Source: an uncultured Bacilli bacterium
Lineage (GTDB): Bacteria > Bacillota_I > Bacilli_A > RF39 > UBA660
DNA length: 64,000 bases
NCBI GenBank assembly: GCA_934141145.1
Contig: CAKPCA010000002.1
Span: 3,701 to 67,700, forward strand
Direction: 5' to 3'
The translations under genes and the position numbers were made by a program. Below the pieces are notes generated by a model that was not told the origin of the DNA, made no database searches, and saw nothing but the letters and a program-made list of their open reading frames with translations. Numbering within the stretch: the stretch's first letter is position 1; each line of letters opens with the position of its first letter. This document shows positions 763 to 61,427 of the stretch, piece by piece.

Positions 763-1143
763 TGGTGGACCTGAGGAGAGTCGAACTCCTGTCCAAAAAT
801 GAGTACAGATAAGTTTCTACAAGTTTAGTTAGTTTATAATTTGTCCTAATTCATAAAAGAAACTAACAACCTATAAATTAGTAAGCCTATAATTATTCAT
901 TATTACTTCTAGGCTAAATAATAATATATCTTGCTAATGTTCGAATTTTCTAAAATCTACGCAAGAAAAGATAATAGAAAATACGCATTTCTGACTTACG
1001 CAGCTAAGGCTACACTATTGCTTCTGAATAGTGATGCAAATGCATCTTTAATTTTGTTTCCAGTTATTTGTTTTTGTACGTAACGTGTACCTCCGACTTG
1101 CCACTTAAAAGAAATCATTCCTGTCGAAACCATATACAGGCCC
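763..1143 (-). ncRNA. ssrA: tmRNA (SsrA)
   Basis: Minus-strand 3' end is GGAGTTCGACTCTCCTCAGGTCCACCA (tRNA-like T-arm plus CCA); 5' end is GGGCCTGTATATGGTTTCGACAGG; internal tag reading frame ends ...SNSVALAA followed by TAA; lies immediately downstream of smpB as in Bacillus. Confidence 0.8.
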
Positions 1144-25255: not shown

Positions 25256-25412
25256 CCTCCTATCAATTTATATCAAAAAAGTCCTTGTACTAAAGACAAA
25301 GACTTAAAATAAGTATTAAGTAATTGTCCTCGGTAAGAAATATTAAGCTTTCGCTCTTACTGTCTTAGGTACATAAAAACTTTTTGATAAACTAATTATA
25401 TATTATTATTTA
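25256..25412 (-). promoter_or_regulatory. Probable L10 (rplJ) leader / autoregulatory RNA element
   Basis: 157-nt untranslated spacer between rplA and rplJ, the location of the Firmicute L10-leader; contains GC-richer paired segments (CCUAAGACAGUAAGAGCGAAAGC...CUUACCGAGGACA) in an otherwise AT-rich spacer; not modelled. Confidence 0.35.
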
Positions 25413-41707: not shown

Positions 41708-42546
41708 TATTTACCTCCATGATACTTCATATAAACTTCATTTTTTTCTAAATTATGCAATTTTGCGACTGTCTTTATTGCCTCTTTTTCACTTATTCCA
41801 TCTAAAACTAGCGCTTTTACATGAGAAAGAATATCAATATTATCATATGATTTTTCTTCTTTATTTCCTTCCACAATAATTACAAATTCGCCTTTTGGTT
41901 CTACTAACTCACTTAATACATCGTCTATAGTTCCTCTATAAATTTCTTCATATTTTTTACTTATTTCACGTGAAACAGATATATTTCTATTACCCATTAT
42001 TTCTTTTATTAATAATAATGTTTCTATAACTCTATATGGTGATTCATAAAAAATTATTGTATATTTTATACTTTTTAATTCTTCTAATTCTTTCTTTTTT
42101 TGAGATTTCTTACTATCCAAAAATCCATAAAACAAGAATTTATTAGGATTTATTCCTGACATAATTAAAGCTGGTACAAATGCAGTTGCACCAGGAAGAC
42201 CAATAACATTATATCCTTCTTTTATTGCATGATACGCTGCTACATAACCTGGATCACTTATTGCAGGAGTCCCCCTATCAGATACTAATGCAACCATATT
42301 TCCATCTTTTAAATATTCAAGTACTTTTTCATAAACTTTATCCTCATTGAATTTATGACAAGAAATTAATTTCTTATTTATATCAAGTTCATTTAATAAT
42401 TTTTTAGTTTCTCTAGTATCTTCAGAAAAAATAACATCCGCTTTTTTAAGTACATTTATAGATCTCAATGTAATATCATCTAAGTTTCCAATTGGTGTAG
42501 GAACAAGATATAAACTTGCAGAATTATTATAACTTTTTTGACTCAT
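41707..42546 (-). CDS. rsmI: 16S rRNA (cytidine1402-2'-O)-methyltransferase
   Basis: LYLVPTPIGNLDDIT...SEDTR tetrapyrrole-methylase-fold signature. Confidence 0.85.
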   Translation of the reverse strand: MSQKSYNNSASLYLVPTPIGNLDDITLRSINVLKKADVIFSEDTRETKKLLNELDINKKLISCHKFNEDKVYEKVLEYLKDGNMVALVSDRGTPAISDPGYVAAYHAIKEGYNVIGLPGATAFVPALIMSGINPNKFLFYGFLDSKKSQKKKELEELKSIKYTIIFYESPYRVIETLLLIKEIMGNRNISVSREISKKYEEIYRGTIDDVLSELVEPKGEFVIIVEGNKEEKSYDNIDILSHVKALVLDGISEKEAIKTVAKLHNLEKNEVYMKYHGGK

Positions 42547-46133: not shown

Positions 46134-47771
46134 TTATATTTCTCCTATCTCAATTAAATCTTCAAATTCATTTTCTTCTTTTTGCTTCGATTTTGAAGAT
46201 ATTTTATTTAGAACTGCATTTTCATCTAGTTCTTCAATTTCTTCTTTATTTTTAATTTTTTCTATATATTTTACTCTTTCTTTAAGCCAATAATCATTAT
46301 TCAAAAAACAAATTTTTATCTTTTTATTTAATACTGAAGATATTGTATCTTCGATATCAAATAGATTTTCATATAATTCTTTAAGCATATTATTATTATC
46401 AGTTGTTAATACCATACCATCTGTTGAACCGGCTTTTAAATTGCAATCAGATAATATATTTATAACTTTTAAATGATCTAAATTAGTTATATCATTTTCT
46501 AAATTTTTTATTGTGTTTGAATAATTACTTAAAGACATTTTATCTGCTTTTGACAAAATATTATTTAATCTAATATTCATTAATTCACTATAAATTTCTA
46601 AATTTGTATCGTTCTCTTCTTTATTCATAGAAGTTTTATCTTTAGTAACATTAGTATTTTCTTCTATCTTTGGCTTAGATACTTCCATAGACTCTGTTTT
46701 TTTATTACGAACATTCGTTTGTTTATTTAATATATTCAATATTTTTATTATAGTTAAATCAAAGAAGATTTTTTTATCTTTTGCATTTTTCATATCTGAT
46801 ATAGCACTATTGAACATCATTATAATATCAATTATTTTATCATCAGGTAAAATCTTCATTATATCTGTTGTTTCACCTATTTGAAGTTTCAAATAAGAAT
46901 CTCTTAGATACTTAATTATATCTTCACAGATATATACAAAATTTTTACCCATACCATCAAATTTTTCTATTTCATCAAAACATTCTTTTATATTATCATT
47001 ACATATTTGTTCAAATAAATTATAAATTTCTTTATCAGACATTCTTCCACTTAATAAAACAACATCATCTTTTTTTATATCACCATTAGTATATGCATTA
47101 AGTTGATCTAAAAGTCCAATAGCATCTCTCATTCCGCCATTTGAATCTATAGCAATTAAATCAAGTGCATCATCGGTAACATTTATTTTTTCTTCTTCAC
47201 ATATATATTTTAATTTTTGAGTCATTACACTTTTAGGTATCGGTTTAAATTCAAATGACTGGCACCTTGAAATTATTGTAAGTGGTATTTTATGTGGTTC
47301 AGTTGTTGCAAGAATAAATATTACATGTTTTGGTGGTTCTTCTAATGTTTTTAATAATGCATTAAAAGCTCCTGTTGTAAGCATATGTACCTCATCAATT
47401 ATATATACTTTATATTTTGACATTGTAGGCAATAATGTTACATGATTTTTTATTTCTCTTATTTCATCTACTCCATTATTTGATGCAGCATCCATTTCAA
47501 TTACATCTATATTTTCGTTATTATTATTACTAATACATATATCACAATTCTCGCATGATATTCCATCTTTAGAATTTTCACAATTAATTGTTTTTGCAAA
47601 TATCTTTGCAATACTTGTTTTACCCGTTCCCCTTGGTCCTATAAATAAATATGCATGTGTTAATTTATTGTTTTTTATTATATTTTTTAATGTTTTTACT
47701 ATTACTTCTTGACCAGCTACATCATTAAATGTCTTTGGTCTATATTTTCTATATAATGCTTGATATAACAT
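46134..47771 (-). CDS. dnaX: DNA polymerase III subunit tau/gamma
   Basis: AAA+ Walker A GPRGTGKTS, zinc module CENSKDGISCENCDIC, SRC; 545 aa. Confidence 0.9.
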   Translation of the reverse strand: MLYQALYRKYRPKTFNDVAGQEVIVKTLKNIIKNNKLTHAYLFIGPRGTGKTSIAKIFAKTINCENSKDGISCENCDICISNNNNENIDVIEMDAASNNGVDEIREIKNHVTLLPTMSKYKVYIIDEVHMLTTGAFNALLKTLEEPPKHVIFILATTEPHKIPLTIISRCQSFEFKPIPKSVMTQKLKYICEEEKINVTDDALDLIAIDSNGGMRDAIGLLDQLNAYTNGDIKKDDVVLLSGRMSDKEIYNLFEQICNDNIKECFDEIEKFDGMGKNFVYICEDIIKYLRDSYLKLQIGETTDIMKILPDDKIIDIIMMFNSAISDMKNAKDKKIFFDLTIIKILNILNKQTNVRNKKTESMEVSKPKIEENTNVTKDKTSMNKEENDTNLEIYSELMNIRLNNILSKADKMSLSNYSNTIKNLENDITNLDHLKVINILSDCNLKAGSTDGMVLTTDNNNMLKELYENLFDIEDTISSVLNKKIKICFLNNDYWLKERVKYIEKIKNKEEIEELDENAVLNKISSKSKQKEENEFEDLIEIGEI

Positions 47772-47859
47772 ACATACCTCCTTTATAAACTTCTTTATAA
47801 GTATACCATTTTTGATTATTTTTTTAAATGTTTTTTATACTTAAATCAAATTATTTTTT

Positions 47860-47985
47860 AATGTTTCACGTGGAACATTGTTTTTGTTTTTGTACCATCT
47901 ATGAAAGTAATGTTTCACGTGGAACATTGTTTTTATTTTTTTCTATTTAATATTAAAAGTACTATGTTTCACGTGAAACATATTA
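47860..47985. repeat. Three tandem copies of an 18-bp palindrome (ATGTTTCACGTG[G/A]AACAT) in the tadA-dnaX spacer
   Basis: Cores at 47861-47878, 47910-47927 (both ATGTTTCACGTGGAACAT, each followed by TTGTTTTT[G/A]TTTTT) and 47964-47981 (perfect ATGTTTCACGTGAAACAT, overlapping the last codons and stop of tadA). Confidence 0.5.
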
Positions 47986-48394
47986 AATATTTTCTTCTTT
48001 TTTCTTTAAAAAATGTTGTTAATAAATCTGAAAAGTATTTTTTCTCTATATATTCATAGTTATTAATTGCATCTTTTTGTTCTTCATTTTGTTTAGATAA
48101 ATAGTAAACGTCGCTAATTCTACTTTTTTTAATTATTTCTTTACACATTGAACATGGTTCTAATGTTACATACATTTTGCAATCATTTAATCTCCAATTA
48201 TTTAAATTTTGCTGTGCTTCATTTATTGCAATTATTTCTGCATGATTCATAAAATTTTGAGTTTGTTCTACTTTATTATATCCTCGTCCGACTATAATGT
48301 TATTTTTTACTATTATTGCTGCAATTGGCACTTCATTTTCTTCTATAGCTTTATTAGTTAATTTTTTTAATTCATCAAATATGATATTTTCCAT
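47969..48394 (-). CDS. tadA: tRNA-specific adenosine deaminase
   Basis: CDA fold motifs HAEIIAI and PCSMC; start at MENIIFDELKK preceded by GGAGG; the track's 25-codon extension reads through the SRP RNA gene. Confidence 0.8.
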   Translation of the reverse strand: MENIIFDELKKLTNKAIEENEVPIAAIIVKNNIIVGRGYNKVEQTQNFMNHAEIIAINEAQQNLNNWRLNDCKMYVTLEPCSMCKEIIKKSRISDVYYLSKQNEEQKDAINNYEYIEKKYFSDLLTTFFKEKRRKYLICFT

Positions 48395-48405
48395 ATTTTC
48401 CTCCA

Positions 48406-48484
48406 AAAAAAAGCACACACGAAAAGGGAATGTTAAGGCTGCTATATTTCTATCCTGACCTGGTTCCAATATTTCCGTTGTGCA
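48406..48484 (-). ncRNA. ffs: Signal recognition particle RNA, short (4.5S-like) form
   Basis: Minus-strand GGAACCAGGUCAGGAUAGAAAUAUAGCAGCC matches the domain IV core ACCAGGUCAGG...GNRA...AGCAGCC; termini GCACA.../...UGUGUGC pair and are followed by U8; TTGACA-18-TATATT promoter upstream. Confidence 0.65.
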
Positions 48485-48612
48485 ATTAAAATATACATTA
48501 TATATGTTTTTTTGTCAATAAATTTATAAAAAATACGTTTTTTTATATATTTTGTTCGTGTTCTGTTCGTAAAATATTTCCCGGGAAATATTTTTAAACA
48601 AAAAAGAAACTA

Positions 48613-51069
48613 TTATTCAGTAGTTTCTTCTTCGTTTTCTGATCCTTCTAATTCTTCTTTAGTAGTAGCAATTGTTGTAACTTTTTGATTTTCTTTTAAG
48701 TTAATTAATCTAACACCTTGTGTTACCCTACTCATTTTAGATACTTGATTCATAGGTATTTTAATAATAATTCCGCTATTTGTAATAATCATTAACTCTT
48801 CATCATCATTTACGTTCTTAACAGCAGCTAAATTACCATTCTTTTCTGTAACATTTAATGCTTTAACACCTTTACTACCTCTATGAGTTAAACGATATTC
48901 TTCAATATTTGTACGTTTTCCGTAACCATTTTCTGTAATAATTAATATATCGCTTGTTGGATCAACCTTTTCAGCACTTACACAAATAGCATCTTCTGGT
49001 ATTTCAATACCTTTAACACCACTTGCAGTTCTACCCATAACTCTTATTTCATTTTCATTAAATCTAACTAATCTTCCATTTGATGAACCAATAACTATTT
49101 CATTGTTACCATCAGTTTTTGTAACAAACAATAGTTCATCATCTTCTTTTAATGTAATTGCGATTTTACCACTTTTTCTAATTGAATCAAATTCTTCAAT
49201 ATTTGTTCTCTTTACTAATCCTTTTCTAGTAACAAATGTAATATAATCACTATTATCATCTTTTGAAATACTTAATATTGAATTAATTTTTTCATCTTTT
49301 TCAATTGGTAATAAGTTAATTATTGGTAGTCCTTTTGCTTGTCTACTAAATTCTGGTATCTCGTAACCCTTTATTTTATATACTTTTCCTTTATTTGAGA
49401 AGAATAATATATAATCATGAGTCTTAACTGTTACCATCTTTTCAACGAAATCTTCTTCATTAGTAGACATACCTTTAACTCCTACACCACCTTTATTTTG
49501 TACTTTATAAGTGTCTGTAGTAAGTCTTTTTATGTAACCTTTGTTCGTTAATGTAACAATTATATCTTCTACAGGTATTAATGATTCATCTTCTATATAA
49601 TCAATAGCTGTCATATCAATACTTGTTCTTCTTTCGTCAGCATATTTATCTTTAATTTCTAATAATTCTGATTTAATTATACCGAAAATTCGTTCGTCTG
49701 ACGCTAAAATTGCTTTCAAATCTTTAATTTTTTCTAATAAATCATTTAATTCGTTCTCAATTTTATCTCTTTCTAATCCTGTTAATCTTCTTAACTTCAT
49801 TTCTAGAATTGCATCTGATTGAATTTCACTTAAACCAAATTTACTCATTAAACCAGCCTTTGCTTCTTCATCTGATTTAGAGCCTCTAATTAATTTAATT
49901 ACTTCATCAATATGATCAAGTGCAATTTTTAAACCTTCTAATATATGAACTCTTTTTTCTGCTTTATCTAAGTCAAATTTTGTTCTTCTTATAATTACTT
50001 CTTTTTGATATTCAATATATTTTGAAATAATATCTTTTAATCCTAGTGTTTTTGGAACACCTTTATCTAACATTAAGAATATTATTCCGAAATTAGTTTG
50101 AAATTGTGTATGTTTATATAAATTATTTAACACAACTTGTGCATTTGCATCTTTTTTAAGTGTAATAGTTATTTTTACACCATTTTTTAAATCTGTATGG
50201 TAATCTGCTATACCTTCTATAGTTTTATTGTGGACAAGTTCTGCAACCTTATTTTTAAGTTCCATTGTATTAACACCATAAGGAACTTCATCAATAATTA
50301 TATAATGTTTACCATTTTCTTCTTCAATTCTTGCCCTACTTCTTATAGTAATGGTTCCTCTACCTGTTTCATAAGCCTTTTTAATACCACTATTTCCTAA
50401 AATAATACCACCTGTTGGGAAATCTGGTCCTTTAATATGTTCCATTAATCCAAGAGTATCAATTTCAGGATTATCTATATAAGCAATACATCCATCAATT
50501 ACTTCACCTAAGTTATGTGGTGGAATATTTGTTGCCATACCAACAGCAATACCCATAGTACCATTTACAAGAATATTTGGAAATCTTGAAGGTAATATTT
50601 CAGGTTCTTTTTCTGTTTCATCAAAGTTTGGTATGAAATTTACTGTATCTTTATTAATATCTCTTAACAATTCTAGTGAAATTTTAGAAAGTCTTGATTC
50701 AGTATAACGCATTGCGGCTGCCCCATAACCTTCTATATTACCAAAGTTACCATGTCCATCAACAAGCATATTTCTATAACTAAAATCTTGTGCCATACGA
50801 ACCATTGCTTCATATATACTTGAATCTCCATGCGGATGATATTTACCCATAACATCACCGACAATACGTGCCGATTTTTTATGAGGTTTATCTGGTGTAT
50901 AACCTGATTCATACATTGACCATAAAATTCTTCTGTGAACTGGCTTTAAACCATCTCTAAGGTCAGGTAATGCACGGGCTACAATAACACTCATTGAATA
51001 CTCTAAGAATGATGTTTCTATTTCACTTACTATGTTATTTTCTTCTAATCTATCTCTACTATGATCCAT
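48613..51069 (-). CDS. gyrA: DNA gyrase subunit A
   Basis: 818 aa, active-site Tyr region, C-terminal beta-pinwheel repeats. Confidence 0.95.
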
Positions 51070-54232: not shown

Positions 54233-54679
54233 CTAAATACTTTTTCTTTTTCTTAAAATCGATTCTAATTTAGTTGCTCTTAAATATTGATTATCAAAAG
54301 AACCTATTGATATGTCAATTTCAACACTTTCACCATTTTCAAAATATACAATAGACTTACCATTCAAATCTTTATAATCTGTTATGTGATTAAGTGAAAA
54401 CCAAATACAATCTGATAACCTTGGCGATGTACTAGGAAAATATATCATATTTCTACTTTCTTCTATTATAATTGGAGATTTATGACTAACCCCTATTAAA
54501 CTTTTAGTACCCTCATGTCTTCCTAAATATGAGCTACCAAAATATTCACAACTTCTTTCTATTATTTTCATTGTATTCATATTTACTATAAATCTACTAT
54601 TTTTCTCTATTACTTTTGTATTAAAATCATCAATTGGTATCAAAGCTATTGTATCTTTATTGATTTCATAACAATTCAT
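54233..54679 (-). CDS. comK: ComK-family competence transcription factor homologue
   Basis: Segmental identity to B. subtilis ComK: SCEYFGSSYLGRHEGT (vs SCRFFGSSYAGRKAGT), VSHKSPIII...YFPSTSP..SDCIWFS (vs ISHKPPIMV...LFPTLSS..PQCGWIS), SFDNQYLRA (vs SFENQVYRT); RBS AGGAGG; own hairpin plus U-tract downstream. Confidence 0.7.
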   Translation of the reverse strand: MNCYEINKDTIALIPIDDFNTKVIEKNSRFIVNMNTMKIIERSCEYFGSSYLGRHEGTKSLIGVSHKSPIIIEESRNMIYFPSTSPRLSDCIWFSLNHITDYKDLNGKSIVYFENGESVEIDISIGSFDNQYLRATKLESILRKRKSI

Positions 54680-55933: not shown

Positions 55934-56111
55934 AAAAACCCTCCTAGCCTCAAAATCATTATATCATATTATTATTTAAATTTATGTTATTTTTATTATT
56001 ACTGTTGAAAATGTGCATAACTTTGTTTTTCTTTGTAATTTAAAGGATTTTTTTATTTTTTCCTGTGCAATACTTTTTAATAACAAAGTTTATAACTTTT
56101 ATTTATCCACA
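55934..56111. other. oriC downstream module (dnaA-dnaN spacer): DnaA boxes plus AT-rich unwinding region
   Basis: Perfect TTATCCACA at 56103-56111, TGTGCATAA at 56012-56020 (1 mismatch, inverted), and long A/T tracts. Confidence 0.55.
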
Positions 56112-57479
56112 TTACTCTAATTTTTTCTTAATTTCATTAATTATTTTTTCTAGTTGTTTATTACTTTTTATCTCATCTGCAATCTTATCACATGAGTGTA
56201 TTACTGTTGAATGATCTCTTCCACCAAATTCCATACCTATTCTTGGAAAAGATTCATCCGTTAACTGCCTTGATAGGTATATTGCAATTTGTCTTGGGAA
56301 AGCAATAGTTGCTACCCTTTTCTTTGATTTTAAATCATCCACAGAAACATTATAATATTCTGCAACTACTCTTTGTATCTTTTGTATATCATTTTTAAAG
56401 TTTGTAGAAGAAGTAATAGTTCCTTTTAAAGCTTCTATTGCTAAATCAAGAGTAATCTCTTCTTGAAAGAATATTGTTGAATAAGCACAAACTCTAGTTA
56501 AAGCCCCCTCCAAACTTCTTACATCAGAATGACACATATTAGCAATATATTCTATTGCATCTTCACTCATATGACTAGAAAAATCCATATTATTCATTTT
56601 TTTTCTTAATATTTCTTTTCTAAGTTCATTATCTGGTGGAAAAATATTAACTTTTAATCCCCAATTAAATCTAGTTCTAAGTCTATCTTCTAGATGTTTT
56701 AAATCATCTGGAGAACTATCTGATGATATAATTATTTGTTTTTTATCATCATATAATGTATTAAATGTATGGAAAAATTCATTTTGTGTTTTAGGTGCAT
56801 TTCCTAAAAATTGAATATCATCAATTATAAGTACATCGATATTCCTATATTTATCTTTAAATAAATCAACATAGTCAAAATTTGTTCCTTCTTTATCCCT
56901 TTTATTTAAACCAAGAAAATCATTTATAAACTGATCACTTGTAACATATAAAACTCTTTTATTGGTATTTTGTATTATATAATTACCAATGGCTTGCATT
57001 AAATGAGTCTTCCCTAGTCCACTATTTCCATATATAAATAAAGGATTATACATTTTTCCAGGATTTTCAGCAACAGCAAGTGCAGTTGCTTGTGCAAATC
57101 TATTACTCTCACCTACTATAAAATTTTCAAATGTATAATCTGGGTTTAGATTTGCTTTCTCAGGACTATTATAAGGAACACCAATTTCTTCTTGTTTGTT
57201 TTCCACAGGTTTCTTTATATTTTGTTTATTATATTCATTTTCGAGTAAAAACTCTATATTAAAGTTAGTACCAGTGATTTCATTGAATATTTCACTAATT
57301 ATATCTATATATGATTCAGCAAGATGTTTTTTATGAGCAATTGTAGGAACAATAATAATAGCATGTTCTTCATTTAGTTCAACAAGTTTTGAATCTTTAA
57401 ACCACGTATTATATGATAAAGTATTCATTCTCTTACTTATAGTACTTAAAAAATTATTCCAAATACTTTCAATATTCAT
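56112..57479 (-). CDS. dnaA: Chromosomal replication initiator DnaA
   Basis: 455 aa, AAA+ GNSGLGKTHL, C-terminal DnaA-box-binding HTH. Confidence 0.95.
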   Translation of the reverse strand: MNIESIWNNFLSTISKRMNTLSYNTWFKDSKLVELNEEHAIIIVPTIAHKKHLAESYIDIISEIFNEITGTNFNIEFLLENEYNKQNIKKPVENKQEEIGVPYNSPEKANLNPDYTFENFIVGESNRFAQATALAVAENPGKMYNPLFIYGNSGLGKTHLMQAIGNYIIQNTNKRVLYVTSDQFINDFLGLNKRDKEGTNFDYVDLFKDKYRNIDVLIIDDIQFLGNAPKTQNEFFHTFNTLYDDKKQIIISSDSSPDDLKHLEDRLRTRFNWGLKVNIFPPDNELRKEILRKKMNNMDFSSHMSEDAIEYIANMCHSDVRSLEGALTRVCAYSTIFFQEEITLDLAIEALKGTITSSTNFKNDIQKIQRVVAEYYNVSVDDLKSKKRVATIAFPRQIAIYLSRQLTDESFPRIGMEFGGRDHSTVIHSCDKIADEIKSNKQLEKIINEIKKKLE

Positions 57480-57786
57480 AAAACCACCTCCCCTGAATTA
57501 TAGATAGTTTATAGACTTATAAATTAATTATAAACTTAAAATTTTATGTTTTCAAGTAACAAAAAATTATAAACAATACTTATCCACAACAAATGTGTAT
57601 TATTTTCTATATAAAATAAGGAATTTTATAAGTTATAAACATTTTCCACAAATTAACAATAAACAGTTTAATTATAAACAATACGAACTTATCAACAATA
57701 CTGTTTATAATGTGTATAACTTTGTTTAGCTTTATATTATAAACAAAAAATAAAAAAATTTCCACAGTAAATGTGAAAATAATTTA
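57480..57786. other. oriC upstream module: DnaA-box cluster and dnaA promoter region
   Basis: Perfect TTATCCACA at 57579-57587; TTTTCCACA at 57642-57650; ATTTCCACA at 57758-57766; at least 5 copies of TTATAAACA-like degenerate boxes. Confidence 0.6.
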
Positions 57787-58431
57787 TTATCTTTTAAAAG
57801 GATTACCATTTTCCTCTGGATTATTATAAATATCAATATTTTTTCTTTTTAGTTTATCTTCTATTTTTCTTCTTTCAATGTTCCTTTTATTAATCTCAAC
57901 TTCTTCATCAATTAATTTACCTGTTTCTTGTGATGCCATTTTATCACAAACCATTTTATCGATTAAATCATTAATTATAATTATTTCATTTTTAAGTAGT
58001 AATGCATCTTCTCCACTATATTTTTCACACATTACATTAATACTTTCATTTATATAATCTAGATTTGCTTCTAATTTTCCAATATCTTCTAAAGGTGGTT
58101 CTATTAAATTTATTTTTATATCAATTTTGTTTCTTATTAGGTCTCTAAAATTTTGAAATTCTGTGTCAGCGTTTAAAACACTTCTAACTTTACTCATATG
58201 AGAATTTACAATTACTTCACTTTCCTTATAATCATTATCATAGTTTCTTTTAACAAAATCTAAATCACCACTTACAGGAACATGACAAATTGTATTTGCA
58301 TCCCCTTCCCTAAATCTTCTTTTAATTTCATTAATTTCTTCAAGTTGTTTTCTATCACTTTCCTCTACACTTTTTAAATATTTGTATCTAACTAGAAGTT
58401 CTTTTAATTTTTTTTCCTTATCAAATAGCAT
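57787..58431 (-). CDS. Hypothetical coiled-coil protein (214 aa) embedded in the origin region between rpmH and the DnaA-box cluster
   Basis: ATG at 58431 with RBS AGGTAGGAG (7-nt spacer); charged coiled-coil-like N- and C-termini; no recognisable domain; the track's longer version is antisense to rpmH and rejected. Confidence 0.5.
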   Translation of the reverse strand: MLFDKEKKLKELLVRYKYLKSVEESDRKQLEEINEIKRRFREGDANTICHVPVSGDLDFVKRNYDNDYKESEVIVNSHMSKVRSVLNADTEFQNFRDLIRNKIDIKINLIEPPLEDIGKLEANLDYINESINVMCEKYSGEDALLLKNEIIIINDLIDKMVCDKMASQETGKLIDEEVEINKRNIERRKIEDKLKRKNIDIYNNPEENGNPFKR

Positions 58432-60701: not shown

Positions 60702-61427
60702 ATGGACAAAATTTATTTTACAAAACAAGAATTTGAAAAAATATGGAATAATTTAGCCTTTTTAGGTAGAGCATCTGAGGGTACGTGTAAAAGATTAAAT
60801 AATAAAGAAGCTATAAAATATTTAGATGGACCATATGTAAATTTAACTGAAGAACAAATACTAATGTTTAAAGATATAAAAAACAAAACATACTTATTTC
60901 CATATAGAACATTTTATATAGATGGTAAAATGATGGGATATATAACAAGATATTCTAGTGGCAAAAATCTTATTGAAGTTTCAAGAAATACTATAAGATT
61001 TGATAAATTAATAGATGGTTCACATGTAGTAGAAGAAGATACAAAAAAATTATCTGACAAAGGAATATCAACTTATGACATATTATTTAATATATTGTAT
61101 AAAAATGGAGTATTTCATATAATTGATACTTGTGAGTATAAAAACGTAGATACAAATAATAAAAAATTATACAAAGATAATATAAGCTCATTTAATTATA
61201 GTTTATTAGAATTTTTAGTAAAAGATAGATTTTATAAATTTGTATTTACATCAAAAGAGCTAAGAGAGTTATATGAAGAAGCAGAAAATGGAGAATCAAT
61301 AATACCATTTTTAGAAATGTTAAAGCAAAGACTTTGTGAATATTGTGATGAAGATGTAAAATATGTTAGAGATGCTAAAAAAGCAATGACGTTATGTCAT
61401 AAATCTGTATATCCAGAATACTTTTAA
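60702..61427 (+). CDS. Hypothetical protein (241 aa) between jag and mnmE
   Basis: ATG at 60702 preceded by AGAGGAAG; no recognisable domain; the FHIIDTCEYKN stretch faintly resembles a kinase-like catalytic loop (speculative). Confidence 0.5.
   Translation: MDKIYFTKQEFEKIWNNLAFLGRASEGTCKRLNNKEAIKYLDGPYVNLTEEQILMFKDIKNKTYLFPYRTFYIDGKMMGYITRYSSGKNLIEVSRNTIRFDKLIDGSHVVEEDTKKLSDKGISTYDILFNILYKNGVFHIIDTCEYKNVDTNNKKLYKDNISSFNYSLLEFLVKDRFYKFVFTSKELRELYEEAENGESIIPFLEMLKQRLCEYCDEDVKYVRDAKKAMTLCHKSVYPEYF

Follow-up and report, generated by a model that had tools for sequence, protein, structure and literature searches.

Three palindromes in the tadA-dnaX spacer very probably form an origin-proximal parS array in an uncultured gut Bacilli bacterium

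Introduction

Sites called parS serve as centromeres of bacterial chromosomes and are the places close to the replication origin at which ParB (Spo0J) is loaded. The parS arrays of Caulobacter, Corynebacterium, Myxococcus and Streptomyces surround the parAB operon and extend over several kilobases, and in Bacillus subtilis spo0J adjoins noc and soj. The sequence TGTTNCACGTGAAACA is a highly conserved chromosomal parS, found in B. subtilis, Corynebacterium glutamicum and many other species (reviewed in PMC7022226); Caulobacter and some other species carry close variants of it (PMC7022226). B. subtilis has 10 parS sites, 8 of them in the ori domain (PMC7022226), and counts of 5, 10, 22 and about 20 have been given for Caulobacter, C. 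glutamicum, Myxococcus and Streptomyces, respectively (PMC7333895, PMC7022226). ParB nucleation, formation of a CTP-dependent clamp, sliding and recruitment of SMC are the established mechanism of the family (PMC7333895). In Streptococcus pneumoniae and Staphylococcus aureus, the ParB-parS system cooperates with SMC and has no ParA (PMC7333895, PMC7022226). The standard query for calling parS in gut bacteria is TGTTTCACGTGAAACA with two or fewer mismatches (PMC10197239). The Noc-binding site (NBS) differs from parS at two positions in each half-site, where parS has G and A and the NBS has A and C, respectively (PMC7383237).

We analyzed a 64,000-nucleotide stretch of DNA (hereafter the window) from an uncultured Bacilli bacterium, for which a preliminary description had pointed out three tandem copies of an 18-bp palindrome between tadA and dnaX. 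The G+C content of the window is about 26%; the host is a human-gut Firmicute, and the closest matches in a species-representative genome collection were rabbit-gut metagenome-assembled genomes (MAGs) of uncultured Bacilli. We consider it very likely that the three palindromes are an origin-proximal parS array, the chromosomal centromere of this bacterium. As in B. subtilis, the sites follow the consensus TGTTNCACGTGAAACA and are origin-proximal, in a syntenic neighborhood (dnaA-dnaN-recF-gyrBA ... tadA/scr/dnaX-ybaB-recR), but the B. subtilis sites are dispersed, whereas here three sites fall within 120 bp of one spacer. The arrays of Caulobacter, Corynebacterium, Myxococcus and Streptomyces likewise comprise several parS sites near ori, with a copy number that depends on the species; by contrast, the array described here is tight, with two to five copies in the single tadA-dnaX spacer.

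Position and identity of the palindromes

The window spans the replication origin, with oriC flanking dnaA. The genes dnaA (56112-57479), dnaN, a comK-like gene, recF, gyrB and gyrA are all on the minus strand, and rnpA, yidC, jag and mnmE are on the plus strand, starting from 58.7 kb. A DnaA-box cluster (oriC) is located upstream of dnaA at 57580-57719, with a second, small cluster between dnaA and dnaN at 56012-56111, and the cumulative GC skew is lowest at about 58-59 kb. Taken together, the DnaA-box clusters, the GC-skew minimum and the gene order place the array 8-10 kb from oriC.

The array lies between tadA, encoding tRNA adenosine deaminase (47969-48394, minus strand), on its upstream side and dnaX (46134-47771, minus strand) on its downstream side. 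A small SRP RNA gene (48397-48494, minus strand; Rfam RF00169, 51.7 bits) is found just upstream of tadA. Just downstream of the array is a dnaX promoter-like site (47800-47828, minus strand) consisting of a -35-like element and a TG-extended -10. Indeed, the extended -10 TGgTATACT that had been proposed for dnaX is present at 47808-47800 on the minus strand, and alignment showed it to be conserved in relatives.

All three palindromes were recovered where the preliminary description had placed them, and the start-to-start figures from a repeat finder agreed with its spacing of 49 and 54 bp. The first, parS-1 (47861-47878), is the 18-mer ATGTTTCACGTGGAACAT; its 16-bp core at 47862-47877, read on the minus strand as TGTTCCACGTGAAACA, matches TGTTNCACGTGAAACA exactly. 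The second, parS-2 (47910-47927), is the same 18-mer with a core (47911-47926) identical to that of parS-1, and its homologous position is kept in relatives in the alignment. The third, parS-3 (47964-47981), is the perfect palindrome ATGTTTCACGTGAAACAT, with the core TGTTTCACGTGAAACA at 47965-47980. No strand is assigned to any of the sites.

Against the parS consensus, which we took from a review (PMC7022226), all three 16-bp cores showed zero mismatches. By chance, the window would contain 0.11 matches to the 16-bp consensus with two or fewer mismatches, and the observed count exceeded that of every one of 100 shuffles; for the 18-mer with three or fewer mismatches, 0.07 matches were expected in shuffled controls, and the observed count was likewise reached in 0 of 100 shuffles. 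As a positive control, metagenome contigs were retrieved by AT-rich codons for the helix-turn-helix of canonical ParB, and at least 26 perfect copies of the 16-mer stood beside their canonical parB genes. The palindromes are textbook parS, which makes the element an ordinary one. Earlier, the motif had been left unmatched after a comparison with cre, CIRCE, Rex, NrdR, LexA and DnaA boxes; parS, which lay outside that comparison, matches it exactly. The proposal that the palindromes are sites for a dimeric regulator was sound insofar as the palindromes exist, are not random and are likely to be bound by a dimeric protein, although it passed over the exact motif.

The same 27-bp block, TAATGTTTCACGTGGAACATTGTTTTT, contains copy 1 (47859-47885) and copy 2 (47908-47934), which therefore have the appearance of a recent local duplication. 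An earlier suggestion that the repeats are a local duplication and nothing else can accordingly be kept for these two copies, but not for the array itself, which is conserved across species (see below).

The third copy had been said to encode the last five codons and the stop of tadA. The overlap with the stop is real, but only three complete codons are involved: parS-3 takes in the final Cys-Phe-Thr and the TGA that ends the gene, plus a single base of the Ile codon before them. The position of this stop is polymorphic. In the window, 47981-47989 reads TAT and translation continues to the TGA inside parS-3, giving a protein of 141 amino acids (aa), whereas tadA in two other metagenome contigs of the same species (L001 and L002) has TAG 18 nt earlier and encodes 135 aa (L001:9783-9791). 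The overlap of parS-3 with tadA thus varies between strains and does not reflect a coding constraint. Among the related species, the first parS comes directly after a tadA TAA stop, and parS abuts the tadA stop in four out of four.

A weak fourth candidate, TATTTCACGTGAAACA (41962-41977, no strand assigned), lies inside rsmI. It has one mismatch to parS, a G-to-A change in one half-site as in the NBS, and so resembles a hybrid of parS and NBS. The site encodes V-S-R-E-I and was found in same-species contigs (L001-L004). The match may reflect a weak parS, or it may have arisen by coincidence from the coding sequence.

Conservation in related species

The three sites are kept in all five of the same-species contigs (5/5). 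In four related gut Bacilli MAG species, here called L010, L011, L017 and L018, the tadA-dnaX spacer contains two, two, five and three parS copies, respectively. DnaA identity is 89-90% for L010 and L011, in which the two sites are 36-37 bp apart in the same spacer, and 87-88% for L017 and L018. In L017, a human-gut MAG (GCA_902496825.1), five perfect copies extend over L017:19517-20194 and the spacer is expanded to about 780 bp, which indicates that the copy number of the array evolves quickly. Alignment with the relatives showed invariant palindromes in a diverged surrounding spacer, and the 15 copies from five species gave an extended 20-bp consensus, AATGTT(T/C)CACGTG(A/G)AACATT. The spacing between copies varies from 36 to 248 bp across species. 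A conserved sequence combined with free copy number and spacing is the pattern of a protein-loading array, not that of an operator or a structured RNA. Thus, the tadA-dnaX palindromes are identical to parS, lie close to the origin and are conserved, with changes in copy number, across five species.

These comparisons bear on the possibility that the palindromes are operators through which an unrelated dimeric transcription factor regulates dnaX. Their position, 50-170 bp upstream of the dnaX -10 element, would suit an operator. However, their sequence is exactly that of parS, their number and spacing vary freely relative to the dnaX promoter, unlike those of an operator, and no candidate regulator gene is adjacent. 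We regard regulation of dnaX from these sites as exceedingly improbable.

The palindromes had also been described as resembling intrinsic terminators, or as antisense insulators. If they acted mainly as RNA, they would be either intrinsic terminators on the minus strand, for tadA and the SRP RNA, or plus-strand antisense insulators ahead of the dnaX promoter. On the plus strand, each palindrome can indeed fold into a hairpin of 7-9 bp (-7 to -11 kcal/mol), the T-runs reported after copies 1 and 2 are present, and in some relatives a T-rich stretch of the gene strand follows the first copy downstream of tadA. However, a terminator scan of 47300-48700 returned zero terminator-like sites. The 7-9-bp stems have two G-C pairs each (about -7 kcal/mol), and the minus-strand folds of copies 1 and 2 were no better than those of shuffled sequences, with z-scores of 0.27 and -1.66, respectively. 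Runs of T or A were inconsistent beside the 15 copies from the five species, with counts ranging from 2 to 8 out of 10. The genes from about 7.7 to 58.6 kb all run on the minus strand, which leaves no convergent plus-strand gene for a terminator to act on, and the plus-strand T-runs are explained by a gene strand that is A-rich, which makes the plus strand locally T-rich. Moreover, a terminator does not need an invariant sequence of 16-20 bp. Rho-independent terminators share with these sites an inverted repeat that is sometimes followed by a T-run, but the short stems here are AT-rich, a T-tract follows them inconsistently, and it is the sequence rather than the structure that is conserved.

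Given the scan, the folds and the lack of conserved T/A tracts, we rejected the identification of the palindromes as intrinsic terminators or insulators, and a main role as RNA appears very unlikely. The first copy may act as a minor, secondary and weak tadA terminator in some relatives.

A Noc-binding site near the array

We also considered whether the array copies could themselves be NBS (tATTTCCCGGGAAATa, in which position 1 of each half-site is A and position 6 is C). This was ruled out, as all three copies have G and A. What they share with the Noc system is the 16-bp palindrome scaffold, a perfect NBS about 600 bp away and a nearby ParB-family gene of the Noc type; the difference is that the three array sites are of the parS type at both discriminating positions.

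The perfect NBS, TATTTCCCGGGAAATA (48575-48590, no strand assigned), is located between the gyrA stop and the SRP RNA promoter, 594 bp from parS-3, where 0.02 such sites were expected by chance. It is kept right after gyrA in L010, L011, L017 and L018 and lies 570-594 bp from the array in five out of five species.

Direct repeats of CGAACA about 11 bp apart (ACGAACAGAACACGAACA) come after the NBS. In L017 and L018, such repeats are found on both sides of it.

The ParB-family protein and the search for a parS reader

Beyond the right end of the window, mnmG and rsmG are followed by a single ParB-family gene and then by a convergent penicillin-binding-protein gene. The ParB-family gene (L006:13608-14690) is located about 2.5 kb past the right end of the window; its 360-aa product contains the motif GERRYKAA as well as ParB_N and HTH_ParB domains. 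Neither soj nor spo0J was found at the locus after rsmG, where noc, soj and spo0J usually lie together, and in this the locus differs from that of B. subtilis. A lone ParB-family gene without soj and spo0J is also present at this locus in two more distant relatives (L015 and L016), and L010 has the same layout of rsmG followed by a ParB-family open reading frame (ORF).

The 360-aa protein scored best as Noc, with 287 bits against TIGR04285 (cut-off, 315 bits), and its best solved relatives were Noc chains (213 bits, compared with 171 bits for Spo0J). At the specificity positions 173, 179, 184 and 201 (Caulobacter numbering), it has Q, K, N and R, respectively, and these residues are invariant in 20 family members. 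Q173 reads the adenine of the NBS, and R201 reads its cytosine given Lys at 179 or 184 (PMC7383237). Variants with Q173 and R201 are NBS-specific; T or S at position 201 is found in most dual-specificity variants (PMC7383237). The Q-K-N-R combination therefore leads us to predict that the 360-aa Noc-type protein binds NBS and not parS. On the same grounds, with a DNA-binding domain nearest to that of Noc, we set the neighboring gene aside as a candidate for the reader of parS.

Further comparison revealed that the protein does not have the N-terminal region of roughly 20 residues, including the membrane amphipathic helix, that is found in solved Noc chains, and an in-frame stop just upstream of the ORF excludes a longer N-terminus. 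With this helix missing, classic membrane-tethered nucleoid occlusion is doubtful. In addition, its linker is acidic and variable, and about 45 aa at the C-terminus form a distinct domain that is conserved.

The window and the 10 kb flanking it at either end (84 kb) yielded no canonical ParB, with the parS-type residues R173 and G201 in Caulobacter numbering. By tblastn, no second ParB paralogue was detected in the window and the fetched loci, nor was one present at the corresponding locus of L015 and L016. Scanning metagenome contigs for AT-rich codons of the ParB helix-turn-helix yielded none attributable to this clade among the matches listed; these came mostly from low-GC contigs with a near-identical ParB helix-turn-helix, many had marine-survey names, and they seemed unrelated to the clade. 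No ParA gene was seen near the origin in the 84 kb covered. The locus is in this respect like the ParA-less systems of S. pneumoniae and S. aureus, which are also those of Firmicutes, but these have an identified ParB, whereas no canonical ParB was found in the 84 kb here.

A 1.298-Mb contig of a related species encodes a DnaA homologue with 87% identity, and its length suggests that genomes of this clade are about 1.3 Mb in size. Because 84 kb was covered out of about 1.3 Mb, a relocated parB is the simpler and most economical reading, and we infer that the cognate canonical ParB is encoded elsewhere, outside the 84 kb.

An alternative is that the clade has no canonical ParB and that the parS array is read by a non-canonical protein, for example by the lone Noc-type CTPase acting on both NBS and parS in a composite centromere. 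The single ParB-family gene at the canonical locus here and in L015 and L016, where soj and spo0J are absent, would fit this arrangement, as would the lack of the amphipathic helix in the lone Noc-type protein, with a stop codon just upstream, and the fixed position of the perfect NBS relative to the array in all five species. However, the Q173 and R201 pair points to NBS specificity rather than to the dual specificity mostly seen with T or S at 201, the small part of the genome covered makes relocation of parB simpler, and one NBS per 84 kb is equally expected from an ordinary, dispersed Noc regulon. We therefore think such a reader unlikely. The evolutionary scenario that goes with it, in which the clade lost Soj and Spo0J but kept and even amplified the parS array (two to five copies), with the lone CTPase or another protein as centromere reader, seems to us improbable to a similar degree. 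If true, it would exemplify in nature either the return of a Noc-derived protein to the role of ParB or the dual reading of parS and NBS. A canonical ParB not found in 84 kb together with a helix-less Noc-type paralogue gives a concrete hypothesis on the evolution of ParB and Noc.

Proposed function of the array and other features of the window

Returning to the reading of the palindromes as a parS array served by a canonical ParB, we infer from the ParB/parS paradigm that ParB would bind the array, spread from it and load SMC. In this model, a ParB dimer would nucleate on each 16-bp palindrome, and CTP binding stimulated by parS would then close the ParB clamp and let it slide onto the DNA on either side. 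With three sites next to each other, successive rounds of loading could build a partition complex of several kilobases that reaches oriC. The complex would recruit SMC-ScpAB, by which the chromosome arms would be aligned and sister origins separated, and, should the genome encode a ParA, would engage this protein as well.

The identification would fix the annotation of the locus, with the palindromes as a chromosome-segregation element and not a regulatory one. It would also give this uncultured gut lineage an independent marker for its replication origin. With its two to five copies, the tadA-dnaX array offers a natural example for the question of why the number and clustering of parS sites vary.

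Several other features of the window were recorded. A ComK-family gene (54233-54679, minus strand) lies between dnaN and recF, a position kept in all relatives examined. Between jag and mnmE is a conserved 241-aa ORF (60702-61427, plus strand) without a Pfam match, which L006, L015 and L017 carry at the same position. Another ORF without a Pfam match, coiled-coil-like and 214 aa in length (57787-58431, minus strand), is located between the DnaA-box cluster and rpmH; in L017 and L018, two Mur-ligase genes take its place. The window also contains two ordinary Rfam matches, namely a tmRNA gene (763-1143, minus strand) with the tag GNKIKDAFASLFRSNSVALAA and a ribosomal protein L10 leader (25266-25387, minus strand).
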